Positions 1,335-60,799 of a DNA stretch of 64,000 nucleotides are shown here, piece after piece. The stretch lies in IMG/VR virus record IMGVR_UViG_3300048924_000619, positions 30,138-94,137 of that record; one strand, given 5' to 3'. The position numbers and the translations under genes were made by a program. The notes beneath the pieces are model-generated. The model saw nothing but the letters and a program-made list of their open reading frames with translations, was not told the DNA's origin and did no database searches. The first letter of the stretch is position 1. Each line of letters opens with the position of its first letter. This DNA is from a virus.

Positions 1335-1357
1335 GTCGTGACGGCGCAATAGTCCGC
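1335..1357 (+). promoter_or_regulatory. GTCGTGAC promoter-like element (variant spacing)
   Basis: GTCGTGAC 15 nt before ATG 1358; lacks the A at spacer position 4. Confidence 0.5.
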
Positions 1358-1600
1358 ATGACGAATCACTCCGGGTCCTTCCCGCTGATGGCGATCGCCG
1401 CGGAGCACGGCGTCGAATACGGCGACGTGCTGCTGATGGCGGACCTCTATCGGTGTACCGTCCAACGCCTGCACGTCCCGCGTGGTCGCGCGGTGCTGGC
1501 CAGCCGGGCGGCGTATCGCGTTCAGAAGGCGGGCGGGGTCCGCGCGCTGGTGAGCCTCCGCACGACTTTGGTGCGCCATGCGCTGGGCCGTTGGTCGTGA
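1358..1600 (+). CDS. hypothetical protein
   Basis: ATG follows the GTCGTGAC motif; stop overlaps the next GTG (GTGA). Confidence 0.5.
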   Translation: MTNHSGSFPLMAIAAEHGVEYGDVLLMADLYRCTVQRLHVPRGRAVLASRAAYRVQKAGGVRALVSLRTTLVRHALGRWS

Positions 1601-1902
1601 GTTGCTGCCCGCATTGCGGCGGCGTCCTCCCGCCTGTCATCGCCAGCAAGGGCGGCGGGAATCCGTCGCTCCCGGAAGAACTGCGCCGCGCCGGCCAAGA
1701 GGCCGGTGAGGTTGCGGTTCGGTTGGGCGATGATCTGGTCGGCTGGCGCGGCATGGTCTGGAGCCGGTGCTTGGCGCGCAAGCCAGCAGAATGCTGGGTC
1801 ACGGGCGTCACGATCCCTGTGAGCGGGCCCGCGTGGCGGCCGATCACGAACGGTAAGGACCGACCGCGGCGCGTGGCGGCGTCCGTCTGGGCGGCGATAT
1901 GA
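1597..1902 (+). CDS. hypothetical protein with N-terminal CxxC (CCPHCG)
   Basis: GTG start overlaps upstream stop; stop overlaps helicase ATG (ATGA). Confidence 0.5.
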   Translation: MSCCPHCGGVLPPVIASKGGGNPSLPEELRRAGQEAGEVAVRLGDDLVGWRGMVWSRCLARKPAECWVTGVTIPVSGPAWRPITNGKDRPRRVAASVWAAI

Positions 1903-3059
1903 CCCCGACGCCAGCACAGGCCGCGGCCATCCGCGCCATCGTCGAGTGGTACAAGGGCGGCCGGCGGACGCCTCAGGTGTTCTACCTCGCTGGCTACGCT
2001 GGCACGGGCAAGTCGACGATCTTCAAGGCCGCGCTCGAGGAGCTGCGCGAAAAGGGGGGCCTGAAAAAGCACGCCCTCGCGACATTCACCGGCAAGGCCG
2101 CGTCGGTGCTGCGGAAGAAGGGGAACTACGAGGCCCGCACGATCCACTCGCTGATCTACATCCGTGACGAGTCCGCGGACTCGAAGTGGATCCTCAACTG
2201 GGCGGGCGAAGCCGCGGACGTCGATCTGATCGCACTCGACGAATGCTCCATGGTCGATGAGGCGATGGGGCGCGACGTGCTGGCCTTCGGCAAGAAGGTG
2301 CTCGTCATGGGCGACCCTGGCCAGCTGCCGCCGATCCGTGGCCAGGGGTTCTTTACCACTCGCGAGCCGGACGTCTTCCTGGAGGAGGTGCACCGCCAGG
2401 CCGCGGAGTCGCCGATCATCCGGCTCGCCACGATGGCGCGCGAGGGGAAGCAACTCCCGCTCGGCGAATGGGACGCTGGCGAGCTCGGCTGCGCCCGGGT
2501 GCTCAAGCACGGGCCCGAGACGCAGCGCGAGCTGTATCGGGAGGAGACGCAGGCGCTCTGTGGCCTCCACCGCGTCCGCATCGGCTACACGCAGCGCATC
2601 CGCCGGATCCGTGGCTTTGAGGGCCCGCGGCCGATGGCTGGCGAGACGCTGCTCGTCCGCAAGAACGATCGCGAGCTGGCGATTTTCAACGGGACGTTCG
2701 CCGGGCTGCGCGCGGATCCGCGGCCGTACAAGCGCCGCGCCGGCGACGACGAGTCCGACGCGGCGCTGATCCGCCTCGACATCGAGCCCGAGGACGGCGC
2801 GCCGATCGAAGGCATGCTGACCGACCCGTACCTGTTCGACCGCCACTTCCGAGACGTCCAGGAGCCGCGGTTCCGCAAGGGCATCCAGTGGGTCGACTGG
2901 GGCAACGTCATCACCATGCACTCGGCGCAGGGCTCCGAGTGGCCGGACGTGACCGTCGTCGATGACGGCGGCTCGTTCCGCGAAGACCAGCACCGTTGGC
3001 GCTACGTCGGCCTCACCAGGGCGAGCGAGCGCGTGACGTTTTTGGGGAGGATGGGATGA
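1899..3059 (+). CDS. RecD/Dda-like SF1 DNA helicase
   Basis: Walker A GYAGTGKS, DECSM, GDPGQLPP, HRQA, HSAQGSEW, YVGLTRA. Confidence 0.9.
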   Translation: MTPTPAQAAAIRAIVEWYKGGRRTPQVFYLAGYAGTGKSTIFKAALEELREKGGLKKHALATFTGKAASVLRKKGNYEARTIHSLIYIRDESADSKWILNWAGEAADVDLIALDECSMVDEAMGRDVLAFGKKVLVMGDPGQLPPIRGQGFFTTREPDVFLEEVHRQAAESPIIRLATMAREGKQLPLGEWDAGELGCARVLKHGPETQRELYREETQALCGLHRVRIGYTQRIRRIRGFEGPRPMAGETLLVRKNDRELAIFNGTFAGLRADPRPYKRRAGDDESDAALIRLDIEPEDGAPIEGMLTDPYLFDRHFRDVQEPRFRKGIQWVDWGNVITMHSAQGSEWPDVTVVDDGGSFREDQHRWRYVGLTRASERVTFLGRMG

Positions 3060-3292
3060 GGGGAATTGTGCGAGCGGTCGCGGCCGCAGCTCTTGCGATG
3101 GCGACGGGCGTTGGTCAGCCCTATCGGCCGGGCGCCCCGCGGAACTACGACCTGGACGAGCCCATGGAGGCTTACGTGACGCGTCGCGCGCGCCGCAATG
3201 GTGGCAAGCGTCACAAGGTCGGCGCCTACAAGGGCTCGCGGTTCGCGAAGCGCGCGTCGAAGCGCGGCGGCAACCCGGCGGCGCACGGGTGA
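3056..3292 (+). CDS. hypothetical basic protein
   Basis: ATGA overlap with helicase stop; GGAGG upstream. Confidence 0.5.
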   Translation: MRGIVRAVAAAALAMATGVGQPYRPGAPRNYDLDEPMEAYVTRRARRNGGKRHKVGAYKGSRFAKRASKRGGNPAAHG

Positions 3293-3525
3293 TGGCTATC
3301 GAGACGATGATGCGCACCGTCGAGCGCAGCGATGGATGGTGGATCGTCCAGAAGGGCTGGAAGGACTACGGCCCGTTCGGAAGCGAATCTGACGCCGAGG
3401 CTTGGGGTGACAAGCACATCGACGACCAAGTCTTTGGGGATCCGAACTCCTTCGCTCCGGAACTCCGGACGCGCGCCGAAGAGCCGGTCGTCTTGCTCTT
3501 CACCGCCGGCAATACCGCCAGCTGA
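3289..3525 (+). CDS. hypothetical protein
   Basis: Start coupled to upstream stop; phage-like codon usage. Confidence 0.55.
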   Translation: MMAIETMMRTVERSDGWWIVQKGWKDYGPFGSESDAEAWGDKHIDDQVFGDPNSFAPELRTRAEEPVVLLFTAGNTAS

Positions 3526-3618: not shown

Positions 3619-3640
3619 GTCGTGACCGGACGATGCGACC
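3619..3640 (+). promoter_or_regulatory. GTCGTGAC-N3-A-N3-T promoter (ssb-terminase operon)
   Basis: GTCGTGAC cggAcgaTgcgacc; short leader containing AAGGGAAG before ssb. Confidence 0.7.
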
Positions 3641-3658
3641 CGAACAAGGGAAGTACGC

Positions 3659-4120
3659 ATGGCTGGTAGCCTCAACAAGGTCACGCTGATCGGGAACGTC
3701 GGCGCCGATCCGGAGATCAAGTCGCTCAACAGCGGCGACCGGGTCGCGAACATCAGGCTCGCCACCTCCGAGACCTGGAAGGACAAGGGCTCCGGCGAGA
3801 AGAAAGAGCGTACGGAGTGGCATCGCATCGTCGTCTTCGGCGACGGCCTGGTCCGGGTGATCGAGAGCTACGTCCGCAAGGGCTCCAAGATCTACATCTC
3901 GGGCGCGCTGCAGACGCGCAAGTGGAACGACCAAGCCGGCGTCGAGAAGTCCTCCACCGAGATCGTGCTCAAGCCGTACAACGGCGAGCTGATCCTGCTC
4001 AGCGGCAAGGCTGAGGGCGGTTCCGACCATGGCGGCGGCTACAGCGGCGGCCAGTCGAGCGGCGCAGCCTCGGGCGGCGCCAACGCGGGCCCGGACGTCG
4101 ACGACACGATTCCGTTCTGA
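3659..4120 (+). CDS. ssb: single-stranded DNA-binding protein
   Basis: MAGSLNKVTLIGNVGADPE, ATSETWKDK, TEWHRIV, acidic tail DDTIPF. Confidence 0.97.
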   Translation: MAGSLNKVTLIGNVGADPEIKSLNSGDRVANIRLATSETWKDKGSGEKKERTEWHRIVVFGDGLVRVIESYVRKGSKIYISGALQTRKWNDQAGVEKSSTEIVLKPYNGELILLSGKAEGGSDHGGGYSGGQSSGAASGGANAGPDVDDTIPF

Positions 4121-7013: not shown

Positions 7014-7035
7014 GTCGTGACGCCACCCTTTCCGG
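7014..7035 (+). promoter_or_regulatory. GTCGTGAC-N3-A-N3-T promoter
   Basis: GTCGTGAC gccAcccTttccgg upstream of ORF 7076. Confidence 0.7.
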
Positions 7036-7075
7036 GTGACGGGCAGGAGCCCGCGCATCTGGAAAGGATGAACCC

Positions 7076-7774
7076 ATGAAGTATGCCTCTGAGCATGCGG
7101 GCGTGCTCACGTCCGTGCACCAGTGGAAGCCGGTCCCAGCCGACCGCTTCGCTCAACTCCTCCACCACTATTCCACGTTCGTCGCTGATCTGAACGGCAA
7201 GGACGCCCTGTCGATCACAGCGATCGCGCTCGACCGCGACGCCACGGCGACCATCTACTACCGTCGCAAGGAGCGCGGCTCGCCCGTCTACTGCCCGGTC
7301 CTGATGACCATGGAAGGCGCCGGCGGAAAGACGCTCTGTTTTGAGACGACCAACCAGGATTCCGCCCTGGACCCTCAGCAGCCGGCGCTCGTGATCCGCT
7401 CGGCGATGGCCGCGCGGGACGTCTACAAGGCTGAGCGCATGAGTGAGGTCGCCCAGCGCGCCGCGGCGTCCCGCAGCGTCGTCGCCATTACCCCACGCAA
7501 GGCCGCGTTTGATGAGATCCGCCGCGCCTACGAGCGCGCAGGCGGCGAGCGCATCAACCTCGGCATCCACCTTTCGACGCAACTCGACCAGCTGCGCGCG
7601 ATCAAGGGGCGGATCGATGGCGTCTGGCTGCACGACGCTGGCCATATCGGTGCCCTGGGCGAGGTCATGGACGTCATCGCCGAGCTGATGGGCGGCAAGG
7701 GCTGGATGGGGATGACCGGCCACACGCCCATGGGCTGGCCGGCGCCGGACGGATTGCCGGGAGAGCGCGCCTGA
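7076..7774 (+). CDS. hypothetical protein
   Basis: 232 aa ORF with AAAGGA upstream and typical codon usage. Confidence 0.7.
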   Translation: MKYASEHAGVLTSVHQWKPVPADRFAQLLHHYSTFVADLNGKDALSITAIALDRDATATIYYRRKERGSPVYCPVLMTMEGAGGKTLCFETTNQDSALDPQQPALVIRSAMAARDVYKAERMSEVAQRAAASRSVVAITPRKAAFDEIRRAYERAGGERINLGIHLSTQLDQLRAIKGRIDGVWLHDAGHIGALGEVMDVIAELMGGKGWMGMTGHTPMGWPAPDGLPGERA

Positions 7775-7786: not shown

Positions 7787-7808
7787 GTCGTGACGGCAGG
7801 CTGAGGCC
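7787..7808 (+). promoter_or_regulatory. GTCGTGAC-N3-A-N3-T promoter heading the RNA island
   Basis: GTCGTGAC ggcAggcTgaggcc, with no long ORF for ~220 nt downstream. Confidence 0.65.
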
Positions 7809-8027
7809 TCATCACCGGGGCGGCGACTCCCGCCCAACAGAACCCACGAGCTCAACCATGAAGCTCTGAACCTGATCGGCGTCACCTGCCGCCCCTCTTG
7901 GGGAAAGTGGTCGAGCCGCCCGGAAGCAGAGCCGGCGCCTGAGGCCTAAGGCGAAACGATTTGGTTCCCTGCCGCTGGGGGTCAGTCAGCGGCGTGAGCA
8001 CGGACGATACCGGCCGAGAGGGGTGAA

Positions 8028-8685: not shown

Positions 8686-8762
<77 letters not shown>

Positions 8763-10392: not shown

Positions 10393-10414
10393 GTCGTGAC
10401 GCCAGTATCGGCGC
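10393..10414 (+). promoter_or_regulatory. GTCGTGAC promoter, leaderless (portal)
   Basis: GTCGTGAC gccAgtaTcggcgc ATG; 14 nt spacer, no SD. Confidence 0.8.
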
Positions 10415-12160
10415 ATGGCCGACAATCCCGCCGCCGTTGCGACAGATCCGAACGCGCCCGCGTCGGAGCGCCACGACGCGCAGGCTGAGTTCCAGAAGTC
10501 GCACGGCACGGCCGGGATCGCGTCCGAGCTGTTTCCATCCGCGGCGATGGAGCCGGTCATTGCCCGGATCCAAGAGGTTCTGTTCGAGCAGGATCTCAAC
10601 AAGGCCGCGCAGGGAAACCTGATCGTCGGCCCCTGGAAGAACAAGCGGCCGCAAGACGGCGGCCAGTCCGTCTTCCTCGACAATTTCCAGATCCAGACGC
10701 AGGGCCCCTACTGGGATCGGCCTGGCGTCCTGGGCTTCGACGCCATGCGGTCGATGGTCGAGCAAACGCCGATCCTCAACAGCATCGTGCTCACGCGCAT
10801 CCGCCAGGTCCGCCGCTTCTGCCGGCCGCGGATGGGCAACACGGGCCCCGGCTTCGTGATCGAACACGTTGATCCGCAGGTCGAGCTCAACGACGACCAG
10901 CAAGCATCGATCCAACGCCTGACGCAGTTCGTGATCAACTCCGGTTGGGAAACGGACGCCAGGGCCCGCAAGCGCAAGAAGCGCGACCCGTTCGCGGCGA
11001 TGATGGCGAAGCTCGTGCGCGACACGCTCACGATGGACGCCTGCCCGATCGAGACCGAGTTCAAGCGGTCGCGGAGCCTGGGCCTGGACGGTCTCTATGC
11101 GCTGGACGGCGCCACGATCCGCCTGTGCACCGAGGAGGGCTACAACGGTGACGACGAGTTCTTCGCCCTGCAGGTCATCCAGGGCAACATCCGGACCGCC
11201 TACACCTACGACGACCTGATCTATGAGGTGCGGAACCCGCGCACCGACGTGACCGCCTGCGGCTACGGCTACTCCGAGACGGAGATGCTGATCCGCATCG
11301 TCACCTACCTGCTGAACACGATGACGTTCAATGGGTCGTTCTTCGACAAGAACTCGATCCCGCGCGGCATCCTCAACGTCTACGGTCAGTTCACGAACGA
11401 AGACGTCGCGGCGTTCAAGCGCCAGTGGAACGCCATGGTTCGCGGGGTCCAGAACTCCCACAACCTGCCCGTTCTGGTTTCCAAGGACCAGGAGTCCGGG
11501 ACCAACTTCACCGAGGTCGGCGGCCAGCTCAACGAGATGGCCTTCGGGAAATGGCTCTCCTTCCTGACGTCGATCGCGTGCGCGATCTTCGGCGTCGCCC
11601 CCGAAGAAATCTCCATGGAGTCGTTTGCCACGACGAGCCGCGGGCTCGGCGGGAACGACACCGAGGAGAAGCTCGTCTCAGCGAACGACAAGGGCCTCGT
11701 GCCGCTGCTCAACTTCGTCGAGGACATCTACTCCGATTTCATCCTCCAGCCCTTCTCGCCGCAGTACCGGCTGACCTTCAAGGGCCTCGACGATGAGGAC
11801 GAGGACAAGCGCTGGGAGCGTCAGAAGCTCTCGCTCACCTGGAACGAGGTGCGCGCGGTCGACAGCATGGACCCGATCGATGGGCCGCTGGGCGACGCGC
11901 CCATGAACCCCACGCTGATCGGCATCTGGGCTCAGGAGTCCGGCGTCGGCCAGCCAGAAGAGCCGGAAGAGGACTTCGGCGACCCGGACGCCGCCGGCGC
12001 CGATGATGGCGTGCCCGCCAGCGGAGAGCTGGAGGCAGGCCCGCCCGAACAGCAGACAGAAGACGCAGGCGCGCCGGATCTCGGTTCGCCTGCCGGCGGC
12101 GACGAAGTGGCCAAGGCCCTCGATTTCGGCCTGCCGATCTACGTCCTCGACCTGTCGTGA
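10415..12160 (+). CDS. portal protein
   Basis: LYALDGATIR, GYGYSETE, FFDKNSIPRGIL, IACAIFGVAPEEI, LTWNEVRA; acidic C-terminal tail. Confidence 0.92.
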   Translation: MADNPAAVATDPNAPASERHDAQAEFQKSHGTAGIASELFPSAAMEPVIARIQEVLFEQDLNKAAQGNLIVGPWKNKRPQDGGQSVFLDNFQIQTQGPYWDRPGVLGFDAMRSMVEQTPILNSIVLTRIRQVRRFCRPRMGNTGPGFVIEHVDPQVELNDDQQASIQRLTQFVINSGWETDARARKRKKRDPFAAMMAKLVRDTLTMDACPIETEFKRSRSLGLDGLYALDGATIRLCTEEGYNGDDEFFALQVIQGNIRTAYTYDDLIYEVRNPRTDVTACGYGYSETEMLIRIVTYLLNTMTFNGSFFDKNSIPRGILNVYGQFTNEDVAAFKRQWNAMVRGVQNSHNLPVLVSKDQESGTNFTEVGGQLNEMAFGKWLSFLTSIACAIFGVAPEEISMESFATTSRGLGGNDTEEKLVSANDKGLVPLLNFVEDIYSDFILQPFSPQYRLTFKGLDDEDEDKRWERQKLSLTWNEVRAVDSMDPIDGPLGDAPMNPTLIGIWAQESGVGQPEEPEEDFGDPDAAGADDGVPASGELEAGPPEQQTEDAGAPDLGSPAGGDEVAKALDFGLPIYVLDLS

Positions 12161-12175
12161 CGGGATAGTGGAGCT
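12154..12175 (+). promoter_or_regulatory. GTCGTGAC-N3-A-N3-T promoter
   Basis: GTCGTGAC gggAtagTggagct overlapping the portal stop; SD GAGGGG downstream. Confidence 0.7.
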
Positions 12176-12193
12176 CTCATCCGAGGGGATCGC

Positions 12194-17985: not shown

Positions 17986-18002
17986 GCGTAGGCGAGGCGG
18001 AT

Positions 18003-19178: not shown

Positions 19179-19200
19179 GTCGTGACCGCATATTCGGATT
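19179..19200 (+). promoter_or_regulatory. GTCGTGAC-N3-A-N3-T promoter (near-leaderless)
   Basis: GTCGTGAC cgcAtatTcggatt, then GCG, then ATG 19204. Confidence 0.75.
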
Positions 19201-19203
19201 GCG

Positions 19204-21619: not shown

Positions 21620-21641
21620 GTCGTGACCTTAGCGTCGGCTC
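21620..21641 (+). promoter_or_regulatory. GTCGTGAC promoter, leaderless
   Basis: GTCGTGAC cttAgcgTcggctc ATG; 14 nt spacer. Confidence 0.8.
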
Positions 21642-22802
21642 ATGGGCCGACCGCTTCTTCTCGACATCGCCTGCCTTTGCGACGAGCACAGCGACGCTGC
21701 GCTTGAGGGGATCTACAAGGCGATCGGCGAAGAGCCGCCTGACGGCGACATCTGGGCCGAGCATCCGAATCCCTTCGTCCGACGCATCGTCGAGCTCTTT
21801 ACGCAGCGTGGCCTCGACCGCATCCAGGGCCTGCGCGCCGAGCTGACGCGCTGGCTGCGTGGCGAAGAGCATCAATCGACGCCTGAAGCTCCAACCCTGC
21901 GCCCCGATGGCGCGATGCGCCGCTGGGACGCGACCGAGCTTGGCGTCGTCCGCCTCTATCTCCGCAACCTGCCGGCCGGCGAGTTCGCGATCGACGACTG
22001 GATGCTGCTCGTTGACTACCTCGTGCAGCGCTACCTGCCGGAGGCGGACCTCCGCAGCGAAGCCGACTGGTTGGCCACGCGCTCCGGGCTCATGGGTCGC
22101 GTGCAGGCTGCGATGGGCGAGGCCAAGCCGGAGCAAGTGGACGTCATCCTGGCGACGCTCCCGAGCCTTGAGGACGCTATCGCCAGCTGGGGCATGACGG
22201 CGCCGCAGCGAGCGGCCATCGACTACGGGCGGGCGCGCTGCGCCGAGAGCGTCACGGGCCTCGCCGATTCCACCCGCCACCGGCTCCGGCGGATGGTGGT
22301 CGACCATCAAGAGGCGATCCACCTCGGCGATCGCGCCGCCGCAGCGCACGACATCCAGACGAAGCTGCTCGACGAATTCGGCCTCCTATCGCGCGACTGG
22401 CGGCGCATCGCCGTCACAGAGGCCACCGAAAACACCAATCAGGGCTTCATCGCCTCCATGCCGCCAGGCGCGCGGGTGCGCCGCGTCGAAAAGTACCGCG
22501 GGGCCTGCCCGTTCTGCCGCTCAATCGACGGGAAGGTCGTCACGGTCGTCTCGCCGACGGCGCCGGACAAGGACGGCGAGACGCAGATCTGGGTCGGAAA
22601 GACGAACGTCGGCCGGTCGGCCAGCCCGCGCAAGCGCGCCGGCGGAGCGCTCGTCGAGCGGGAGCCTCACGAAATGTGGTGGGTCGCCGCTGGCGCGATG
22701 CATCCGCACTGCCGCGGGGCCTGGGTCAAGGCCGGCGGTGCGTCGGCGGATCCAGAGTTTGAAGCCTTCCTCGAAAACCTCGGAAAGCGGAAGTCCACAT
22801 GA
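21642..22802 (+). CDS. MuF/SPP1 gp7-like head morphogenesis protein
   Basis: RDWRRIAVTE, ACPFC, HPHCRG. Confidence 0.8.
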   Translation: MGRPLLLDIACLCDEHSDAALEGIYKAIGEEPPDGDIWAEHPNPFVRRIVELFTQRGLDRIQGLRAELTRWLRGEEHQSTPEAPTLRPDGAMRRWDATELGVVRLYLRNLPAGEFAIDDWMLLVDYLVQRYLPEADLRSEADWLATRSGLMGRVQAAMGEAKPEQVDVILATLPSLEDAIASWGMTAPQRAAIDYGRARCAESVTGLADSTRHRLRRMVVDHQEAIHLGDRAAAAHDIQTKLLDEFGLLSRDWRRIAVTEATENTNQGFIASMPPGARVRRVEKYRGACPFCRSIDGKVVTVVSPTAPDKDGETQIWVGKTNVGRSASPRKRAGGALVEREPHEMWWVAAGAMHPHCRGAWVKAGGASADPEFEAFLENLGKRKST

Positions 22803-24167: not shown

Positions 24168-24214
24168 GTGGTGAAATTCTCCGGGATGGAATCGGGTGAG
24201 GGGCCCCCTCAGGC

Positions 24215-24236
24215 CGACCGACCTTCCTGTCACGAC
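24215..24236 (-). promoter_or_regulatory. GTCGTGAC-N3-A-N3-T promoter (divergent, minus strand)
   Basis: GTCGTGAC aggAaggTcggtcg on the minus strand. Confidence 0.7.
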
Positions 24237-24268: not shown

Positions 24269-24290
24269 GTCGTGACCCGAATCTCGGGTC
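24269..24290 (+). promoter_or_regulatory. GTCGTGAC promoter, leaderless
   Basis: GTCGTGAC ccgAatcTcgggtc ATG; 14 nt spacer. Confidence 0.8.
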
Positions 24291-27200
24291 ATGCTGCTGC
24301 TCCTGATGAAGGCCGATCAGCTCGGCCTGTTCGAAAAGCTCGTGCCCGTGAAGGCGAGCATCAGCTCGTCTGGCCGTCTGATCTCCGCGCACACGGCGAT
24401 CCGGCACGTCCGGCGCGTCGAGCCGACGAAGCGCCATGCCGAGGTGCTCGACCTCTTCGGACACGCGCCGCAGCCGAAGCCGGCCCTGGTCACGCCGAAG
24501 AAGCCCGCGCCGGCACCGCAGGCGGACCTGTTCGAGCATCGGCCGGATCCGCCGAAAGCCGACCTCAACGGCATGATGGCGCGGTCGCGCGATCAGCGCT
24601 TGGCGCGCGAGGCCAAGGCGAAGGAGATCGGTGCCGGCGTCGGGTCGGTCAAGCTGAAGCATGCTGACGGTCGCGCCGCGCTGCTTTCCCCGGATCTGCA
24701 ACGCGACGGCGGCTGGCGATTCACCCGCCTGGATGCCGACGGGCCGGTGGGCCACTCCGAGTACGACAGCAAGGAGGCCGCCGCTGCGGAGGCGCTGCGT
24801 GCCGGGTACTCAACCGACGCGCCGGAAGCGATCCAGCCGCACGCGCCGTTAGAACCGGCGGTCAGCCTCCAAAATCAATTACCCGCCTCCGGAATCGATT
24901 ACTCCGAGGGCCTGCCGGCCGAGCTTCCTGCTTTCGGCGTCGCGCCGGGGACGACCAAGGGCGAGCGACGGGCGATCAATGCGCTGGCCGCCTCAATGGT
25001 CAACGGCCGGAAGTCCCTGCTCGACGAGGCGCCGGCACCGGTCAATCCGGAGGTGCTCCGTCAATATTCGGGCTGGGGCGGCTGCGGCGACAGCCTGAAC
25101 GAGTTCTACACCGATCCGAACGTGGCCGCGGCCATGTGGTCCGTCCTCCATCGCATGGGCCTGGGGGAGGGCGCGAGCGTCCTGGAGCCGTCCTGCGGCA
25201 CGGGCGTCTTCCTCGAGCTGGCGCCGAAGGGCGTCAAGGTCACAGGAGTCGAGCTCGACGAAACCAGCTCCAAGATCGCGGCCACCCTGCACCCGACCCA
25301 CGAGGTGGTGAATTCCGCCCTCGAGGCTTTCGCGACGACCGACACGCGCCAGTTCGACGCGGTGATCGGCAACCCGCCGTTCGGCGATAGCCGTGGCTCC
25401 CTGGTTGCGGCCGACAAGCCGGACATCAGCCGGCCCGAGCAATATTTCGTCGATACCGCGCTGGACAAGGCGCGCGCCGGCGGCCTGGTCGCGCTCGTGC
25501 TGCCGACCGGGATCTTGGACAGTCGGTCTGCGCGCAAGCTGCGGGATCGCTGGATCCGCAAGGGCCAATTCCTCGGCGCCCTGCGCATGCCGAACACCGC
25601 GTTCGAGGCCAGCCACACGGGCGTGACCACGGACGTCGTGTTCTTCCGCAAGCGGCCAGACGAGGTCGCCGGCGCGCTGTCCGTGGTCGATCGCGACACC
25701 CTGAAACTGCTCGGCGCCTGGGACGAGGAATTCGTCGGCGGCGGCTACTTCAGCGGCCGCGGTGAGGGCAACATCCTTGGCACGCTGGAAGCCGGGTGGC
25801 GCTCCAAGGCCGGCATGGGCGACGACATCACCGTGGCAGGGTCGATGGTGGGCGTCCCGGAGGCGATCGCCAGCTTTGAGCCTGAACAGCCGTCGGGCCC
25901 GACGGGCGTGGAGGAGGTGCTCGGCGCCGTCCAGGACCAGGATCTGAAGGCTCGCATCCGCGGCGCGGCCGCGCGCAAGCCCTACGATCAGGCGAAGCGC
26001 GGCGACACCCGGGTCATCGACGGCGTGACGTACGTCCTGGAGGGCTCGCCGCTCCGCTGGCATCGCGTGGACGAGTTCATGGCGGAGCAGGCCGTCGTCG
26101 ACGCCGGCGCGCTCGGCGCCGACATCGAACGCGCGGTGCAGGGCGAAGACGTGCCCGGCCTGGCGGACCGCGTTCGCGCCTATGTCTCGGCGCACGGGAT
26201 CCCGGCGAAGAATCCGAACCTCGTCATAGCGGCAAAGCAGGACAAGGCGATATATCGCCTGCTCGGCGCCGTTAAGCAGGACGGCTCGCTCTCTGACGTT
26301 GTCGAGGGCCGTCGCGAGTCCGCCGCCGTCTCCAACTTTGACACGGCGGCGAAGACCCTCGCCCTGGAAGTCGGCTACTTCTCGCCCTCCATGGTCGCCG
26401 GCCGCTGGCATGGCGGGACCGAGGATGTGGTGCTCGACCACCTCTATGCCTCGCCAGACTATGCGATCGATCCGCGCAGCGGGACCTGGACGAGCCTCGA
26501 CCAGTACCTCTCCGGCGAGCTCTGGCCGAAGTACGACGACGCGAAAGCGGCGCTGGCCGAATCCGACTTGAAGCCGGAAGACCGGGCGAAGATCGAACGC
26601 CAGCTGGCCGCGCTGGACGAGGCGATTGCGCCGAAGTCGCTGGAGGACGTCGAGATCCAGGTGAATAGCGGCTTCGTGCCGCTGAACGTCGTGTCGGCTT
26701 TCTTCAACGAGGTCCACCCGTCGAGCTACGGCGACAAGACGCCGATGACCATCACCTATGACGAGGGCGTCTTCGCCGTCATGGGTGGCGGCTACGAGGC
26801 GCACACGCTGCGCAAGTACCTGAACCGCGACGGCGTGCGGAAGGACGACGATCTGCCGACGATCGAACGGTGGAACCGGGCATTCAAGGAGTGGCTCTGC
26901 GCCTCCGCCTATCGCGACGAGGTCGAGGAGCTCTACAACCGGAAATTCCGAGGCTTCCGCCAGAAGGCCTATTCGGAGGAAGCGTTCGAGGTTCCAGGCC
27001 TGCGGTCCGACGGCCTGAAGAGCTACCAGTGGAGCGGGCTGCGCTGGGCTCTGGAGGCCGGCAAGGGGATCATCGCGGCCGACGTTGGCCTGGGGAAGAC
27101 GGCCCGCGCGCTGATCCTCAACAAGCTGATGAAGATCACGGGGCAGGCCAAGCGCCCCATGATCGTGGTCCCGAAGTCCGTGGCGGCCAACTGGATGCGC

Positions 27201-30613: not shown

Positions 30614-30635
30614 GTCGTGACCGCAGCATGCGGTC
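30614..30635 (+). promoter_or_regulatory. GTCGTGAC promoter, leaderless
   Basis: GTCGTGAC cgcAgcaTgcggtc ATG; 14 nt spacer. Confidence 0.8.
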
Positions 30636-33600
30636 ATGCTTCAGAAGCCGCGCGTCATTCTGTTCGCCAGCACGGCGATGCTGAAAGCGACGGCGGCCGG
30701 CGAACGGTGGGTCACGGTCCACCCGCACGGCCCTGACTCCAAGGGTCAGCCGATACTGATCCAGCCACAGCCGGACGGCTCGGCCAAGGTAATCGGCGGC
30801 GCCGGCGGATCGCTGAACCATATGCGGCTCACCGGGATCAAACCGAAGACGGAATACACCGAGACCCTCAAGGAGCGCGCGCGGGACCGCCGCGCCGCCC
30901 GGAAGCGACAGCGGGACCGTGACAAGGCGCTCGGTCTGCAGCAGGCCAAAGCCGACGCGCACAAGAAGGTCACGGAGAAGACCCAGGCCGCGCAGAGGGA
31001 TTTCGTGAGCGGCGTCGCGCAGGCGATGGGTTGGGCGCCGGAGGACTATAAGTTCCAGCCGCCAGAGGGGCAGGCTGACCACGTCGTCGCGAAGATGCAC
31101 GCGGCCCACCTGAAGGAGATGGTGAAGCGCGCCGAAGCCGCGGTGAAGCTGAACCGTGAGCGCATCCTGGCCGACGCGTCGACCCGCGCGCACGAGGAGC
31201 TCGGCGAAGTCCCGCTGGACTCCGAGGATGCGAACACCCTGTCCGTTCAGGATCTCGACCCGGTCAGGACGGCCCCGCTCGGGCTGGGCTTCGCGACGGA
31301 ATACAAGGCCCGCGCGGAGGCCAACGGCGCCGACGAGGCGGCCATCAAGGGCGAGGCCGCCGAGAACAGGCGCGAGCAGACGGAGGCCCAACGCAAGGCC
31401 GCCGTCCAGAACGGCGAGACCGCGCGGCTCGTCGCCGAAAACGTCGCCCTCCTGCGCGAGCCAGATCAGGTCGAGAAGCTCGCGCCCAAGCTAGTCGAGG
31501 CGAAACAGGCGCTCGACCTCTTGAAGCTGGAGAAGAAGCGCAAGATGGCGGAGCGCCAGGCCAAGCAGGCGCGTAAGCAGATCGACGACGCGATCGAGGC
31601 GCCCAAGGCCTATATCGTCGAGGTGGACGATGCGAAGGTCGACGCGAAGGTGGCGGAGGACGTCGCCAACGACCTTCGCACGATCTCCACGCGCGCCTTC
31701 CTGTCAGAGGTCGAGAAGACGGTCCCGGACGCGGCCGTCACGCTGCGCCGTCACGTGGGCGCCGGCGCGTACAATTCGGTCAACGCCCTGGCCCTGGCCG
31801 CCGGCGGCGCGGCGCTCGTCGACCGTAGCGTCGTGGATGTCCTGGGCATCGCCGGCGCGGCGGAGGTACTCGCCCGGCGGCTGCACGCCGATCTGACGCC
31901 CGACGAACTGCGCGACGTCTCCGAGGGCATGACCGCCTATCACCTCCATCATTACATGGAGGCGTCGGAGGAGGCGATCGGCCGGGCCCGTGAGCTTCAG
32001 GCGCAGGCGCGCGAGATGGAACTCGGCGCCGCGGAGAACGGTGAGGATCTCGCGGCGCTCCAGGAAATCAACCGCCAGCGCGGCGCGGCGCTGGGCGAGT
32101 CCCGAAAGGTGCTGGGCACGGCGCTGGGCGAGATGGAGGCGAACGCCGCGCTCGTCTATGCGCTCGGCCGCGGAAAGTCCGAGAAGCCGTTCGTCGTCCC
32201 GCTCGGCGACGTGTCGATGGAGTCGGCGATCGCGCAGGTTCGGGCCATCGGCCTCCAGCGCGGCGATTATTCGATCGAGACCGCCGCGGGCAACCGTGTG
32301 CTCAAAGTGAACCCACAGGGCCTTGACCGCTTGGCTGCGCCGGTCAACCGGGCCGACCTGGAGCAGGTGCGGCGCAACCTCGACATCATTTCCGGACGGT
32401 TCGACGAAGACGATTGGATGCCGCAAGGCATTTCGGACCGGCCGGACCTGGATATGAAGGCCAAGCCGGGCGTCGCTCCGCAGCTGGCCGAACCGTTCGC
32501 GCCGGGCGCTGACCTGGAGGCGTCCGTCCGCGACTACATTGGCGGGCGGGCGGCCGACGGCGACGCGCCGGCGGACATCGTGGCCGACCTGCAGTCGGCT
32601 GATTTCATGCGCAAGGTCGGCGCGGACCGCGTCGATGACTACCGCGCGGCGCTGGATCGGCTGGCCCCGCTGGCCGACGACAAGGGCAACCTCCGCCAGC
32701 CGGAGGCCCTGCGGCCATCGTTCGAGGAGATGGCCGACGCCTTCGCCAGCGCCCGCGGCGCCGTCGAGCCGCTCCATCGCCAGAACTTCCACGTCGATGA
32801 AACCTCGATCGACGCGTTGCACCGCGCGCTCACGTCGGAGCCGACAGGCGTGGCCGCCTACAAGCCGGTCGGTGAGTTGACGCCGCAGGATCAGGGCGCG
32901 CTGCGGGACTTTTTCGCCAAGCACGTCGCGAAGGAATCGCCGGAAGTGGCTGGCCACCGCGCGGAGCTGGGCAAGCTGGAGGCCAGGGAGCCGGAGCGCC
33001 ACGTCGAGGATATGTTCGGCGAGCAGGCGACGAATCCGGAGTGGTCGGATTGGCGCAACCGGCGCGACGAACTGCGCGGCCATGTGAACGCCGGGTCGAT
33101 GACCTGGGCGAAGTATGTGGAGGCGATGCGCTCGCCGCAGGCGGCCTACGCGGCGACGCAGGATCTTGTCCGGAGCCAGATCACGCGCGGTTTCGCGGAC
33201 GCCTACAATACCCTGAAGCCGGCCTCACCGCTGAAGGTCGGTCGCTCGGTCATCCGCTCGAACCTTGACCACCTGGACGCGGTCGATCCGGCCGCCCGGG
33301 ACGCGCGCCTCGCGAAAGAGCGGGCGCTGTCGGACTCGCTGCGCAATCGCGTTGCTGGTCGGTATGCCTCCGGTTCGGTGCGCGACCGGCTTGACGCTGC
33401 GCGTGAGGAGCAAGCAGGCCTCGAGGCGGCGCAGATGGGCTTCTTCGCGGACGAGCCCGCGCCGGCGACGGAGAAGCCCCTCGGTGGCGATGAGCGCTGG
33501 ACGATCGGCCACGAGGCGGAGCGCCGCATTGCGGAAATGATGCCGCAGGTCGGCGCCAACTTCCGGCCCGGCCAGCCTGTGCACCTCTTCCGGCCGTCGA

Positions 33601-42362: not shown

Positions 42363-43162
42363 AGGCCGGCAAGATCCGCGGCGATCGCGGCTGGGAAGTC
42401 CTGGGCCGCGGTGCGCTGGAGGGATTCCGAGACCGCGCGCGCGATCCAAAGTCCCGGCCGCGCCCCGATGACCCATCCGCTGCTACCCTCGGCCATCACC
42501 CGGAAGGTGAGATAGGTCGAGCTGCGCGAGCCGCCGGGATTGTTGGCCTTGAAGCGGACCATTCCCGCGTACGGATCCGACTTGTGCTGCGGCTTAAGCT
42601 TCGGCGCCATCCCGGCACCCAGGCGGCCGCCCCAGACGTAGCGACGCGCGCGGACCTCCATTGGCCGACGCGTCTTGATGTCGCTGGCGTTCAGGCCGGA
42701 GCGCCGGACGCCATGGCCGACGATCTGCGAAGCCGCAAGGTTGCGGGCCTCCGCGTGGACGGCCTTCGGCATGGGCACCGCCAGCGCGCTTTGGCCGGGC
42801 GTGTTGTGGCGGAAGGGGATGATCAGGTAGCGGCGACCCTTCTTCGACACGCGCACCTTGGGGCTCGTGTCCAGCATCCGCTTCATATCGTACGGTGGCC
42901 GGCCGCTTTCGATGTCCTGGACGTATTTGTAGCTCGAGACGATCTCACCTGAGAACGGCCCCGTCATCCGCCCCTGGATGGAGTCGGCGTAGGCGCGGCG
43001 CTCGCCGTCCCAGAGCGGCGCCTTGAGGGCCGCGGCTTTCCACCGCTCCTCGCCGGTCTCCACGACCGCTTGGACCGCAGCTGACAGGTTCGCGAAGATC
43101 CCAGCGCCGGCGATGGGGCCGGCGGCCATGAGTTCCGATAGGTCGACCTTGACGCTCAGCAT
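42359..43162 (-). CDS. neck/tail-completion-like protein, inverted orientation
   Basis: YVQDIESGRPPYDMK..L..SPK, YLIIPFRH, YLTFRVM; own leaderless promoter. Confidence 0.65.
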   Translation of the reverse strand: MLSVKVDLSELMAAGPIAGAGIFANLSAAVQAVVETGEERWKAAALKAPLWDGERRAYADSIQGRMTGPFSGEIVSSYKYVQDIESGRPPYDMKRMLDTSPKVRVSKKGRRYLIIPFRHNTPGQSALAVPMPKAVHAEARNLAASQIVGHGVRRSGLNASDIKTRRPMEVRARRYVWGGRLGAGMAPKLKPQHKSDPYAGMVRFKANNPGGSRSSTYLTFRVMAEGSSGWVIGARPGLWIARAVSESLQRTAAQDFPAAIAADLAGL

Positions 43163-43184
43163 GCTCGAGCATTGGTCTCACGAC
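43163..43184 (-). promoter_or_regulatory. GTCGTGAG promoter variant, leaderless (minus strand)
   Basis: GTCGTGAG accAatgctcgagc ATG; 14 nt spacer. Confidence 0.65.
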
Positions 43185-43192
43185 CCTCGGCT

Positions 43193-43214
43193 GTCGTGAC
43201 AACATGATCCCGGA
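43193..43214 (+). promoter_or_regulatory. GTCGTGAC-N3-A-N3-T promoter (tail operon)
   Basis: GTCGTGAC aacAtgaTcccgga, then CG, then ATG 43217. Confidence 0.75.
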
Positions 43215-43216
43215 CG

Positions 43217-46551: not shown

Positions 46552-46573
46552 GTCGTGACAATAGCTTGGGGGC
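46552..46573 (+). promoter_or_regulatory. GTCGTGAC promoter, leaderless
   Basis: GTCGTGAC aatAgctTgggggc ATG; 14 nt spacer. Confidence 0.8.
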
Positions 46574-46978
46574 ATGACGGACGAATCGCCGACGGAATTC
46601 GTGGTGGAGGTGAAGGGCGTTGGCCAGTTCACCTTCGCCAAGCGGAACATGCGCCTGGAAATCAAGGCGGCGGTGGAGCTTCGGCGGCTCACCGAAGGAG
46701 TCGACCTGGACGACTTCACGCTGACGTTCTTGCGCGCCACCGCGGAGCTCAAGGCGCTCACGAAGTCGGCGCCGAAGGGCTGGGCCCCCGAAGAACTCGA
46801 CGACCTCGACCCCTATGACGACGCGACGTACGGCCGCGTCCTGCTGGTGTGGGGGGCGCTCCGCGAGAAGGAACGTCCCTTTCGCGGAGCTGCTGCGGGC
46901 GTGCAAGCGGGCGGCCAAGACGCAGGCGGGGACGGCGGATCTTTGGTTCCGCCGAACCTTCAATCTGGCGCCGACTGA
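46574..46978 (+). CDS. tail assembly chaperone
   Basis: Between tube and tape measure; acidic; contains CCC TTT CGC. Confidence 0.7.
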   Translation: MTDESPTEFVVEVKGVGQFTFAKRNMRLEIKAAVELRRLTEGVDLDDFTLTFLRATAELKALTKSAPKGWAPEELDDLDPYDDATYGRVLLVWGALREKERPFRGAAAGVQAGGQDAGGDGGSLVPPNLQSGAD

Positions 46979-52382: not shown

Positions 52383-52404
52383 GTCGTGATCGCATCATCA
52401 CGGC
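52383..52404 (+). promoter_or_regulatory. GTCGTGAT promoter variant, leaderless
   Basis: GTCGTGAT cgcAtcaTcacggc ATG; 14 nt spacer. Confidence 0.75.
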
Positions 52405-53556
52405 ATGACGGCGACCACCACGCAAAAGGCAGATGCGGCGCCAATCGGATTCCGCCTCGAGCCCGCCAGCGGCGCGGCGGTCAGCTTCACGTTGCCGATT
52501 CGCCCCGAGGATCTGAATTACAGCGAGCCGGCCATGCAGACGCCGGCGGCCACGTTCGGCGGCGCGTTCGTTGACGACTTCGGCCGCGGCATCCAATCCA
52601 TCTCGATCTCCGGCACGACTGGCTGGGGGCAGGGAACGCGGCCCGACGGGGCTGAGCAGTTCAAGCGCCTCTACGACACGGTCTGGGTCCGGTGGCATGC
52701 GGAGCGCGAGTCGGCGCTCAGCCGCGGCCAGGATCCCAATGACGTTCGGCTAATCTTCGTCGACGCGCTCAATGATCGCGTGGTCACGGTCATGCCCGGG
52801 TTGTTCGTCCTGAAGCGCAACAAGACCCGGCCGCTACTGGCCATGTACCAGATCAACATGATCGTGACCGACACGGGCGTCGTTCCTTCACAGGACGATC
52901 CCCTCAGCATCGGCTCGAGCAGCTCCAGCTTCGGCGTGCTTTCGGGTCTCGCCAGCCTCAAGGCCAGCGTGGGCAAGATCGAGGCTGCGGTGAGCAACGC
53001 CCGCGGCTTCATCGACGCGACCATCGCGCAGCCGGTGCGAGCCTTCATGGGCATGACGCACGAGGTCATGACGGGCGTTTCCGGCCTGGTGGATGGCGTG
53101 AAAGGGGTTGTGGGGGCTGAGGCCGCGCAACTGGCCGGCGTCGGCGCCGATCTGGCGCTGGCGGGGCGCAACGCCTTCCAGGCCTACAATGCCGTGGCCA
53201 ACGCGCCAGATTTCCTGCGCGCTGAGGTGTCCGCGGTGGCGGCCAACTATCAGAACGCCTTCTGTATCCTCAAGAACTCCTTCCGCAAGGTCGAGGAGTA
53301 CCCGGACTACTCGGGTCTGTATGGAGCGTTCAATTGCTCCTCGACCGTCGGGGGATCTCCTCTCAGCATCTACGCTGACACGAACCCATGGGAAGTCCTC
53401 GCCCCCAAGATTCCGGGCGTCGCGGCGATCACGCAGGACGCCCGCGAGCAGATCGACCTGCTCAAGAGGGGCGACCCCGTTCTGTCGCCGATGAGCCTGT
53501 CCGAAATCGGCGCGCGGCTCGGTGTCATCGCCGGCGGCGTGCAGGTGACGCTGTGA
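52405..53556 (+). CDS. baseplate/tube initiator-like protein
   Basis: PIRPEDL...TFGGAFVDDFG.G...ISISGTTG. Confidence 0.65.
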   Translation: MTATTTQKADAAPIGFRLEPASGAAVSFTLPIRPEDLNYSEPAMQTPAATFGGAFVDDFGRGIQSISISGTTGWGQGTRPDGAEQFKRLYDTVWVRWHAERESALSRGQDPNDVRLIFVDALNDRVVTVMPGLFVLKRNKTRPLLAMYQINMIVTDTGVVPSQDDPLSIGSSSSSFGVLSGLASLKASVGKIEAAVSNARGFIDATIAQPVRAFMGMTHEVMTGVSGLVDGVKGVVGAEAAQLAGVGADLALAGRNAFQAYNAVANAPDFLRAEVSAVAANYQNAFCILKNSFRKVEEYPDYSGLYGAFNCSSTVGGSPLSIYADTNPWEVLAPKIPGVAAITQDAREQIDLLKRGDPVLSPMSLSEIGARLGVIAGGVQVTL

Positions 53557-56417: not shown

Positions 56418-56439
56418 GTCGTGACCGCATAGTCGGGCC
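56418..56439 (+). promoter_or_regulatory. GTCGTGAC-N3-A-N3-T promoter
   Basis: GTCGTGAC cgcAtagTcgggcc. Confidence 0.7.
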
Positions 56440-56454
56440 CATGCGAGGCGCCCA

Positions 56455-58220: not shown

Positions 58221-58235
58221 CGGCCAGTCGCATCG

Positions 58236-58257
58236 GTCGTGACGCCAACGTGTGGGC
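58236..58257 (+). promoter_or_regulatory. GTCGTGAC-N3-A-N3-T promoter
   Basis: GTCGTGAC gccAacgTgtgggc, then SD AAGGAG and TTG 58274. Confidence 0.7.
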
Positions 58258-58273
58258 TCCAAGGAGTCTGACG

Positions 58274-58726: not shown

Positions 58727-58733
58727 GGCCGCT

Positions 58734-59588: not shown

Positions 59589-59592
59589 TCCA

Positions 59593-60198
59593 GTGATCCG
59601 CCACGACGTCCTCTTTCCGCTCGGCTACCCGCTGATCAGCCGCATCTATTTCAGCGACCCGGGTGTGTGGGCTGCTGAGGCCCCGCCGCTCACGGCGTGG
59701 GTCCGCGCGGCGGCGAGCGGCGCCGGAGGGTTCAAGGACGACGCCGACGGATGGGGTGGGGGGGCGGCATTCGCCTTCTCGAGCGAGTCGTGCGCTCCCG
59801 GCGCCGACTTCCAAATCCAAGTTGGCGACACGCAGCACTCACGCCCCGCGGCGAACGACGCGCTGGGCAACACATGGGTCAAGCGGGCAGACAGCTCGAT
59901 CCTCGTCCTGGCCGACCGCGGCCGCCCCGATGGCTCTCCTGGTCTGGGCGCGAACTCCACCGGCCTGATCACCCGCAGCGGCGGAGCCGCTGGCCCAAGT
60001 TCCGGCGGGGCGTCGGCCGGCGACGACTCCGATCCGTTCCCGCTGGGGTTTGGCGGCGTGGGAGCGTCGATCACCAACGCGCCCTGGTACGGCGGCGGCG
60101 GCGGCCGGGTGTCGGGAGCGTTCACCTATCCGCAATTCGCCGCCGCGGACGGGCGCGCCTGCCTGGAATTCTACGCCGTGGATCCGGGGTACGAATGA
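59593..60198 (+). CDS. glycine-rich tail-associated protein (paralog 1)
   Basis: GGGAAFA, ADRGR, GFGG, ends EFYAVDPGYE. Confidence 0.65.
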   Translation: MIRHDVLFPLGYPLISRIYFSDPGVWAAEAPPLTAWVRAAASGAGGFKDDADGWGGGAAFAFSSESCAPGADFQIQVGDTQHSRPAANDALGNTWVKRADSSILVLADRGRPDGSPGLGANSTGLITRSGGAAGPSSGGASAGDDSDPFPLGFGGVGASITNAPWYGGGGGRVSGAFTYPQFAAADGRACLEFYAVDPGYE

Positions 60199-60773
60199 GC
60201 ATCCTCCACAGCAAGGTCATTCCCGATCGGTCGCGGCTGATCTCGCGCGGGTGGCTGAAGCTCGCAACGTCCGGGACGGTGATGGCGCCGACTGGTGCGA
60301 CAATCGTCCGTATCGGCATCGTCTCGTCAGGCGGCGAGGGGGAAAACCTGGGCGGCTCTGGCGCGTTCGCCTACCGCAAGGCCCCGACCAGAGAGGGCGA
60401 GGTCTTCGAATTCCAGATCGGCCAGACGCACACCGGCGGTAACTCCGGCCACAGCTGGGTGCGCCGCCAGGCGACCGGGGAGATCCTTGCGTTTGCCGAC
60501 CGCGGCCGGGGCTCCGGCGAGGTCAGCGGCAACGCGGCCTACTGCGTTGGCGACTTCGTCGAGGGCGGCCAATTTCGCCTCCGCAGCGGCGGCGACTCCA
60601 CCTTTGAGCAGGCGTGGGGCTTCGGCGGACGTTGGGCCGCGAACATTCCGAGCCGGGCGTGTGGGCCTGGCGGTGGCGGGCAGGGGCGCATCTACCCCAC
60701 CCCGAATATCGCCAAGCCGGCGGGCGCCGGGGCTGGCGTATTCGAATGGTACGCCGGGGATCCAGGCTTCTGA
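60195..60773 (+). CDS. glycine-rich tail-associated protein (paralog 2)
   Basis: GGSGAFA, ADRGR, GFGG, ends EWYAGDPGF. Confidence 0.65.
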   Translation: MSILHSKVIPDRSRLISRGWLKLATSGTVMAPTGATIVRIGIVSSGGEGENLGGSGAFAYRKAPTREGEVFEFQIGQTHTGGNSGHSWVRRQATGEILAFADRGRGSGEVSGNAAYCVGDFVEGGQFRLRSGGDSTFEQAWGFGGRWAANIPSRACGPGGGGQGRIYPTPNIAKPAGAGAGVFEWYAGDPGF

Positions 60774-60777
60774 GTTG

Positions 60778-60799
60778 GTCGTGACGACAGTGTTTCGGC
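60778..60799 (+). promoter_or_regulatory. GTCGTGAC promoter, leaderless (lysis operon)
   Basis: GTCGTGAC gacAgtgTttcggc ATG; 14 nt spacer. Confidence 0.8.

Follow-up and report, generated by a model that had tools for sequence, protein, structure and literature searches.

The provirus record IMGVR_UViG_3300048924_000619 of IMG/VR raises the question of what a short element repeated between its genes does, and which protein reads it. The stretch analyzed here, referred to as the window, comprises 64,000 nucleotides and corresponds to bases 30138-94137 of the 94,137-bp record, which has a guanine-plus-cytosine (GC) content of 66.5% and encodes an integrase at its left end. The element is a signal of 16 bases in which the octamer GTCGTGAC is followed by N3-A-N3-T. 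Comparison of the window with its relatives gives good support to a promoter that lacks a -35 box and would often start the messenger RNA (mRNA) on the AUG itself. On balance we favor the reading that it is a phage-specific promoter for the multisubunit RNA polymerase of the host, with the octamer read by a phage factor.

The window contains 28 copies of the heptamer GTCGTGA; dinucleotide-preserving shuffles give 12.2 +/- 3.4, and none of 100 shuffles reaches 28. The complete pattern GTCGTGAC-N3-A-N3-T has 16 forward matches and 1 reverse match in the whole record, only one of them in the 30 kb outside the window, and its reversed control has 0. An original prediction made from the letters of the window had listed 19 octamer sites. 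All of these coordinates are correct, and the A at +4 and the T at +8 after the octamer are present at 17 of the 19, the exceptions being 1335 and 43184(-). The distance from octamer to ATG is, as had been stated, exactly 14 nucleotides at nine sites (10393, 21620, 24269, 30614, 36771, 43184(-), 46552, 52383, and 60778), and spacings of 8-13 and 18-23 nucleotides occur in 0-1 cases each. Nine further heptamer matches (1594, 12449, 14619-, 16161-, 16463, 52184-, 56064-, 56654-, and 61853-) lie mostly within coding sequence, are about as many as chance would give, and never carry the A/T pair; this bears out the claim that the octamers in coding sequence at 12449 and 16463 lack it. The element is one-stranded and intergenic.

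The element is carried by a wide set of phages, on the strand of the late genes: Bordetella phage vB_BbrM_PHB04 (PHB04; 94,005 bp), a distant syntenic relative of the record, other cultured phages, about 100 IMG/VR contigs, and prophages of alpha-, beta-, and gammaproteobacteria. PHB04 contains 11 copies of GTCGTGAC, every one on the late strand; the -10 is more distinct there (xACAAT), and GGC-ATG follows it. Five cultured phages were checked besides PHB04, namely Dolphis, ECML-606-1, fHe-Yen8-01, ST4, and Mecenats66. Motif matches on the forward and the other strand number 9/0 in Escherichia phage ECML-606-1, 13/0 in Pseudomonas putida phage Dolphis, 7/0 in Yersinia phage fHe-Yen8-01, and 10/0 in Aeromonas phage ST4. 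The same signal is present in 26 IMG/VR relatives with 45-67% capsid identity and in seven prophages, those of Phenylobacterium, Oxalobacteraceae, Novacetimonas, Azospirillaceae, Caballeronia, Paraburkholderia, and a gammaproteobacterial metagenome-assembled genome (MAG). The octamer is the same in phages of all three proteobacterial classes, at GC contents from 41% to 69%. Because the closest capsid protein (81% identity) sits in a prophage of Phenylobacterium ferrooxidans, the host of the phage studied here is probably a Phenylobacterium-like alphaproteobacterium. Across the clade, the genes behind the signal serve morphogenesis, lysis, and in some cases replication. The term "late regulon" used in the original prediction is too narrow, since the set in the window includes SSB, terminase, and an RNA island.

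The geometry of the element was derived from 199 unique heptamer hits pooled across the clade, of which the 120 with the A/T pair were used for a sequence logo. With the A of the ATG as +1, the only numbering that places the conserved pair at -11 and -7, the logo consists of the octamer at -22..-15, A-11, A or C at -9 and -8, T-7, C-1, and ATG at +1..+3, and the positions from -52 to -23 each carry about 0 information. The ATG lies exactly at +1 in 63 pooled sites and one base later in 14, and 38 sites have leaders. Spacer and upstream DNA vary freely while the element and its spacing stay conserved. A-11 and T-7 are the bases flipped by region 2 of sigma70-family factors. No TTGACA-like -35 hexamer was found 16-18 bp upstream of the -10 in the 120 aligned sites; terminator T-runs often fill this stretch, and in relatives they often abut the octamer. 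Nor do these sites have the TG of an extended -10 at -15/-14: an invariant TG stands at -18/-17, and 103 of the 120 have C at position -15. In gammaproteobacterial phages, a subset with GTCGTGAT-G does create TG at -15/-14. The 45 nucleotides upstream of the window sites are overall no more structured than random 45-mers (-12.4 vs -13.8 kcal/mol), and clear hairpins precede only some of them (7014, 7787, 46552, and 60778). An N4-like hairpin promoter was considered, as perfect 7-bp dyads lie at -17..-1 of 24269 and 30614; judged by eye, most other sites and the relatives are without them, and the idea was rejected.

In contigs of 41-44% GC, the predicted +1 of the motif falls 2 and 10 nucleotides before a transfer RNA (tRNA) gene, that of tRNA-Asn. 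Since the motif precedes tRNA genes in these low-GC relatives, it is expected to act on transcription, and a translational role is unlikely. Such a role would have the motif act on RNA or translation, for example by recruiting ribosomes to AUGs without a Shine-Dalgarno sequence in polycistronic transcripts. It would account for the fixed 14 nucleotides to such AUGs but not for the motif before tRNA genes, nor for copies that lie 30-230 nucleotides before genes with their own leader and Shine-Dalgarno sequence. As the motif moreover follows terminators, and its conserved A and T fit a -10 geometry, we consider a signal of this kind extremely unlikely. The original view of a compact promoter, with an octamer instead of a -35 element and a start on the AUG, thus agrees with conservation, phasing, and the position before tRNA genes, the starts themselves being predicted from sequence.

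The leaderless use of the promoter is suggested by several observations. The nine ATGs at 14 nucleotides had been described as having no clear Shine-Dalgarno sequence, and their pairing energy is indeed -2.4 kcal/mol, while the other genes average -4.9 (Mann-Whitney p = 0.002; baseline from random 17-mers, -3.4 kcal/mol). A spacing of 14 places the TGA of the octamer in frame with the ATG, and the reading frame therefore cannot begin further upstream. Among protease orthologues the octamer-to-ATG distance is 14 nucleotides in 15/28 and 15 nucleotides in 7/28 (22/28 together), and the proteins can be aligned from that Met onward (M-x-x-D-x-Q-L-L). The 14-nucleotide spacing is kept by 12 of 20 orthologues of the SF2 helicase. 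Because ECML-606-1 keeps the element mostly with a leader and a Shine-Dalgarno sequence whereas Dolphis is often leaderless, the promoter appears to be the conserved part, and whether a gene is leaderless or not would depend on the lineage.

The motif is largely confined to phage DNA. All 16 matches in a 4.4-Mb Phenylobacterium genome lie inside the prophage, and 18 of 26 matches in an 8.2-Mb Paraburkholderia MAG lie in a 95-kb phage contig, the rest being at control level. Since the motif is phage-confined, since a lysogen must keep the promoters off, and since the octamer is the same across three proteobacterial classes, we infer that a phage-encoded positive factor reads the element. The same observations weigh against a simpler alternative, in which the host sigma-70 holoenzyme alone would suffice; sigma region 3 or the beta-prime zipper would then contact the octamer as an unusual spacer or as something akin to an extended -10. 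The A-11/T-7 pair is a region-2 signature of sigma and the octamer contains TG, although at the late sites this TG, at -18/-17, is three bases off the extended -10 register and the -10 is weak. Gammaproteobacterial phages often have T as the eighth base and then G, giving a true TG at -15/-14, and in some relatives a GTCGTGAT-like octamer fused to a -10 before the gene for CysA, a cysteine-rich phage protein, reads as an ordinary extended -10. A host factor acting alone is nevertheless hard to reconcile with a motif that is essentially absent from host chromosomes, with prophages that must silence about 19 such promoters, and with an octamer that does not change between alpha-, beta-, and gammaproteobacterial phages of 41% to 69% GC; we regard it as unlikely.

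The many asymmetric intergenic copies along the direction of transcription, in a temperate phage with an integrase, could also be those of a negative site, namely an asymmetric operator or stoperator of the immunity repressor distributed across the late region. A repressor site does not, however, need fixed phasing with A-N3-T, the C/A start, and the start codon, and once the octamer is set aside nothing promoter-like remains upstream. Cultured relatives in which no integrase homologue was seen also keep the octamer, and this explanation is very unlikely. Under the favored reading, that of a promoter with a phage-encoded reader, the 19 sites of the window are as follows.

1335..1357 (+): atypical GTCGTGAC site without the A at +4, 15 nucleotides from the ATG of an 80-amino-acid open reading frame (ORF) at 1358-1600; the weakest member
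3619..3641 (+): putative promoter with leader and Shine-Dalgarno sequence AAGGGAAG, before the SSB gene 3659-4120 (SSB by Pfam)
7014..7036 (+): putative promoter with leader, for ORF 7076-7774; directly after a hairpin
7787..7809 (+): putative promoter heading ORF 8028-8615 and an island of tRNA-Met and permuted transfer-messenger RNA (tmRNA)
10393..10415 (+): putative leaderless promoter, 14 nucleotides from the ATG of the portal gene 10415-12160
12154..12176 (+): putative promoter with leader, for ORF 12194-12475; the portal stop codon is the TGA of the octamer
19179..19201 (+): putative promoter, 17 nucleotides from the ATG of the gene 19204-20847 for a Zeta-toxin-domain protein
21620..21642 (+): putative leaderless promoter, 14 nucleotides; conserved head-associated gene 21642-22802 (earlier labeled "MuF"; no Pfam match)
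24214..24236 (-): putative minus-strand promoter with leader; Shine-Dalgarno sequence GGAGAA, ATG near 24168
24269..24291 (+): putative leaderless promoter, 14 nucleotides; methylase/SNF2 helicase of 1991 amino acids (DarB-like)
30614..30636 (+): putative leaderless promoter, 14 nucleotides; SF2 helicase of 1509 amino acids
36771..36793 (+): putative leaderless promoter, 14 nucleotides; prohead protease
43162..43184 (-): putative leaderless promoter GTCGTGAG, 14 nucleotides, without T-7; inverted gene 42359-43162
43193..43215 (+): putative promoter, 16 nucleotides from the ATG of gene 43217-44047; orthologue N-termini align from this Met
46552..46574 (+): putative leaderless promoter, 14 nucleotides; gene 46574-46978; a strong terminator hairpin (-30.6 kcal/mol) lies immediately before the site
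52383..52405 (+): putative leaderless promoter GTCGTGAT, 14 nucleotides; tail tube initiator gene
56418..56440 (+): putative promoter, 15 nucleotides from a mini-ORF of 5 codons; the TGA of this mini-ORF and the ATG of gene 56455-57564 overlap
58236..58258 (+): putative promoter with short leader, Shine-Dalgarno sequence AAGGAG, and TTG start at 58274; the product of 150 amino acids has the length of PHB04 gp001
60778..60800 (+): putative leaderless promoter, 14 nucleotides; GH19 endolysin gene 60800-61408

Six of these sites (3619, 7014, 7787, 12154, 24236-, and 58236) are followed by an ordinary leader and a Shine-Dalgarno sequence.

The original prediction had proposed a phage sigma factor or activator as the reader. 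A phage-encoded reader is plausible, because the element is found in temperate phages of very different hosts with an invariant octamer, but no sigma-70-family domain is detectable. No sigma factor emerged: six-frame searches at E <= 1 gave no match to Sigma70_r2 (PF04542), although control genomes matched. The corresponding search with PF08281 returned weak helix-turn-helix matches only, and no sigma factor was seen among about 60 proteins of the early region and the window scanned with Pfam or PHROGs; very divergent sigma factors can escape all of these models (PF04542, PF08281, Pfam, and PHROGs). A six-frame search for RNA polymerase with PF00940 found no match, the control likewise matching nowhere. 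Three giant proteins have methylase/helicase domains or none, and no polymerase domain was seen in them. Homologues of T4 gp55, gp33, MotA, and AsiA were not seen either. Two candidates named in the original prediction lie within the window. One of them, encoded by ORF 828-1211 just before the first octamer sites, is a stand-alone winged-helix protein of the OmpR/PhoB type (Trans_reg_C, 5e-10). It is missing from 13/13 related virus records, the Phenylobacterium prophage being the only relative to have it, and it was rejected as a universal reader. The ORFs around 36030 dropped out as well, with no homologue in five whole relatives. An ORF of 1566 amino acids at window 12479-17179, with codon-position GC of 0.56/0.56/0.84 and no Pfam match, also has no homologue in the five whole relatives, and its product therefore cannot be the reader of the clade.

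The candidate readers proposed here are encoded outside the window. CysA, a protein of 200 amino acids with eight conserved Cys (genome 26009-26611), and CysB, a zinc-ribbon protein of 89 amino acids (genome 26929-27198), form a cassette at window -4128..-2939, to the left of the window, which heads rightward transcription. The first octamer site follows a few kilobases further on, and in this phage the cassette itself lacks an octamer. CysB contains CxxC-X17-CxxC and three further conserved Cys (7 Cys). In a core-gene screen of the five whole relatives, CysA was the sole non-structural gene common to all, the others being packaging or virion genes. CysA is present in 15/15 relatives and CysB in 20/20, and CysB adjoins CysA wherever both were located. 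No non-structural genes other than these two were found throughout the clade. Around CysA genes (80 IMG/VR loci, 1.17 Mb) the motif was counted 135 times and the control once. CysA is encoded in each of the five nearly complete records that have at least 8 motif matches. The records without CysA are fragments (several with many sites, 48-75% complete), have chance-level counts, or are the 81-kb provirus G025 (IMGVR_UViG_2884411467_000001). The CysA family is large, with 959 clusters at 50% identity, and its structural model is zinc/cysteine-rich with mixed alpha and beta elements.

In about ten relatives, an octamer-like (G)TCGTGA(T/C) is found 38-45 nucleotides before CysA, fused to a -10 (ATAAT, ACCAT, or AAAAT). 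It stands 3 bases closer to the -10 than at the late sites, with TG at -15/-14 and sometimes a TTGAC-like -35. This element, which is absent from the phage studied here, could be an early host-type promoter or a site of autoregulation.

Several points weigh against the assignment of the cassette as the reader. Neither CysA nor CysB has a matching family in Pfam, PHROGs, or the PDB sequences, and fold searches with Foldseek and VIA-align found nothing above noise (best Z 3.4 for CysA and 4.3 for CysB). Morganella phage Mecenats66 has both CysA and CysB with zero strict motif matches and few octamer-like sites; its CysA is the most divergent of all. Conversely, G025 has several sites, and CysA, CysB, and the capsid gene are undetected in it. 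The link between cassette and motif fits equally well with both being traits of one clade in which the octamer is invariant, and small, fast-evolving regulators could have slipped through the core-gene screen. The G025 record may be mosaic or truncated by the end of its contig; one of its octamer sites lies before a primase homologue, and it has two tail-gene homologues. As regards the folds, the best match of CysB (Z 4.3) is a zinc ribbon of the Elf1/TFIIS type, within a set of weak, noise-level matches to the polymerase-associated ribbons of Elf1, TFIIS, and Rpb9 (Z <= 4.3). BFVD returned only CysA's own family, and the protein atlas returned unnamed clusters only. CysB does not match Ogr_Delta and reaches generic zinc-ribbon models below threshold only. 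Taking both sides together, CysA/CysB may be the factor that reads the octamer, an identification that we put forward tentatively and hold at somewhat less than even odds.

A related alternative is that the host sigma is replaced, as by gp55 in T4, by a very divergent sigma-like protein of the phage, which would recognize the octamer as well as the A/T pair. A promoter that spans no more than -22..-7 would suit a small sigma factor without a -35-binding domain, and CysA could be such a protein, as it is universal in the clade and falls in the size range of T4 gp55. The T4 protein is comparable in size to CysA, which has 175-200 amino acids. The lack of any Sigma70_r2 match in the six-frame search at E <= 1 speaks against this, and the CysA model matches no sigma structure, though a missing match proves little; the alternative appears rather unlikely.

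The mechanism that we favor retains the host polymerase. A sigma-70-type region 2, most simply that of the host primary sigma, would read A-11 and T-7 of an otherwise degenerate -10. With the -35 absent, the invariant GTCGTGAC at -22..-15 would supply specificity through a phage-encoded factor, for which the CysA/CysB cassette is the candidate. Transcription would start 15 nucleotides after the octamer, with C at -1 and a purine at +1. About half of the units in this phage would start with AUG and be translated as leaderless mRNAs, and the remaining units would have an ordinary leader and Shine-Dalgarno sequence or consist of RNA genes. Because the factor would be made by the phage, the roughly 19 promoters would stay off in a lysogen and be activated jointly once the prophage is induced. 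The motif, its statistics, conservation, and phage specificity, its placement before protein and tRNA genes, and the phyletic pattern of the cassette are direct observations; where transcription starts, whether the host sigma takes part, whether a phage factor is required, and which protein that would be are all inferred here. A bolder version, in which CysA and CysB would be a new kind of bacterial promoter-specificity factor that replaces sigma region 4 and the -35 contact on the host polymerase, reads the -22..-15 element upstream of the -10, and turns on a middle/late set of leaderless genes across the phages of alpha-, beta-, and gammaproteobacteria, is possible and more doubtful than the identification of the reader itself.

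Known systems offer partial parallels. Sevostyanova et al. reportedly described in 2007 the middle and late promoters of Thermus phage phiYS40 as a temporal class with no -35 box and with leaderless mRNAs. The "-10 motif adjacent to ORFs" of Deinococcus-Thermus has no -35 box, lies a few bases before the start codon, and gives leaderless mRNAs (PMC12340547). The element resembles both in its missing -35, in a -10 placed a few bases before the start codon, and in its predicted leaderless mRNAs. Unlike here, however, those promoters need only a -10 or an extended -10 and belong to hosts in which leaderless expression is usual, whereas the present element has an added invariant 8-bp element at -22..-15, a -10 reduced to A-11/T-7, and hosts among the Proteobacteria. 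Like the sigma-70 extended -10 (TGn), it dispenses with the -35 by means of a short element upstream of the -10 in which TG is present, but this TG lies three bases further upstream (-18/-17) and eight bases rather than two are conserved.

In T4, gp55 reads the late promoters (TATAAATA) in concert with gp33 and the gp45 clamp, and middle promoters have a MotA box used with AsiA. The present promoters would share with these the character of a phage-specified class that by means of phage proteins bypasses host -35 recognition and switches many units together. They differ in sequence and in that the MotA box is centered near -30 and the T4 late element lies at the -10 only, compared with -22..-15 here. 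The late activators Ogr and Delta have a small C4 zinc finger and a dyad site near -55, unlike the asymmetric element at -22..-15. Stoperators of Cluster A mycobacteriophages are asymmetric repressor-bound sites that block elongation, and the start-associated sequences of Cluster K are linked to translation. The element is similar to both in its many short, asymmetric intergenic copies, oriented with transcription and near gene starts, but it differs in its -10 geometry, in following terminators, and in also standing before tRNA genes. By analogy only, the B recognition element (BRE) and TATA box with TFB/TFIIB likewise combine a short asymmetric element upstream of the melting element with a zinc-ribbon factor that sets direction. 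CysB is likewise a zinc-ribbon protein, its fold scores being at noise level. If the proposal for the cassette were true, CysA/CysB and the octamer would work as TFB and BRE do in archaea.

The layout is unusual in combining an invariant octamer in the spacer region with a -10 cut to two flipped bases, a missing -35, and a predicted start on the AUG, and it is identical in phages of hosts from Caulobacterales to Enterobacteriaceae. No account of this promoter was found in the literature searched, including that on PHB04 and the cultured relatives, and a full-text search for the octamer returned primers only. The element would appear to be a new variant among phage-specific promoters that lack a -35 and serve leaderless genes. 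Phage-specified promoter classes, among them those of T4 (middle and late), SPO1, and phiYS40, have been highly instructive as to how RNA polymerase can be re-targeted. The element provides an annotation rule for transcription units and true start codons across the clade, and CysA/CysB is a concrete candidate reader with cultured relatives on E. coli and Pseudomonas putida. A natural comparison is offered by predicted leaderless mRNAs in phages of high-GC alpha- and betaproteobacteria and Pseudomonas versus mostly leadered ones in the E. coli phage, a contrast that bears on host differences in leaderless translation.

A few further observations concern start codons and individual sites. The mini-ORF within window 56418-56458 reads ATG CGA GGC GCC CAA TGA and forms an ATGA overlap with gene 56455-57564; it appears to lack a leader and to be coupled to the gene that follows. 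It is resembled by a relic AUG-UUU-UGA at the predicted +1 of the protease gene of ECML-606-1. By the promoter rule, the start of PHB04 gp066 looks mis-annotated: the gene probably starts at 59527, where an ATG follows the octamer at 59549, 26 codons upstream of the annotated start. Window 43162-43215 holds a divergent, back-to-back pair of putative promoters with octamers 8 bp apart. This arrangement recurs in relatives, where the leftward octamer is often GGCGTGAC (PHB04 14015; 41360 in the relative G003). A mis-annotated start was likewise suspected for a plus-strand gene after 14015 of PHB04; near 13993, an octamer-like site at 14015(+) places an ATG at 14037, the annotated start of gp015.

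Among the genes of the window, the island downstream of site 7787 occupies an ORF-free stretch of 1.8 kb between the terminase region and the portal gene, with tRNA-Met at 8686-8762 (ARAGORN and Rfam) and a circularly permuted tmRNA at 9280-9499 (RF04321, 58.6 bits). The product of 19204-20847 has 547 amino acids and a C-terminal Zeta-toxin/AAA_33 kinase domain. A GH16-like protein gene (17179-17985) and a minus-strand acyltransferase-3 gene (18003-19082) have neither an octamer promoter nor a homologue in relatives, and the genes in window 17179-19082 look like acquired cargo.

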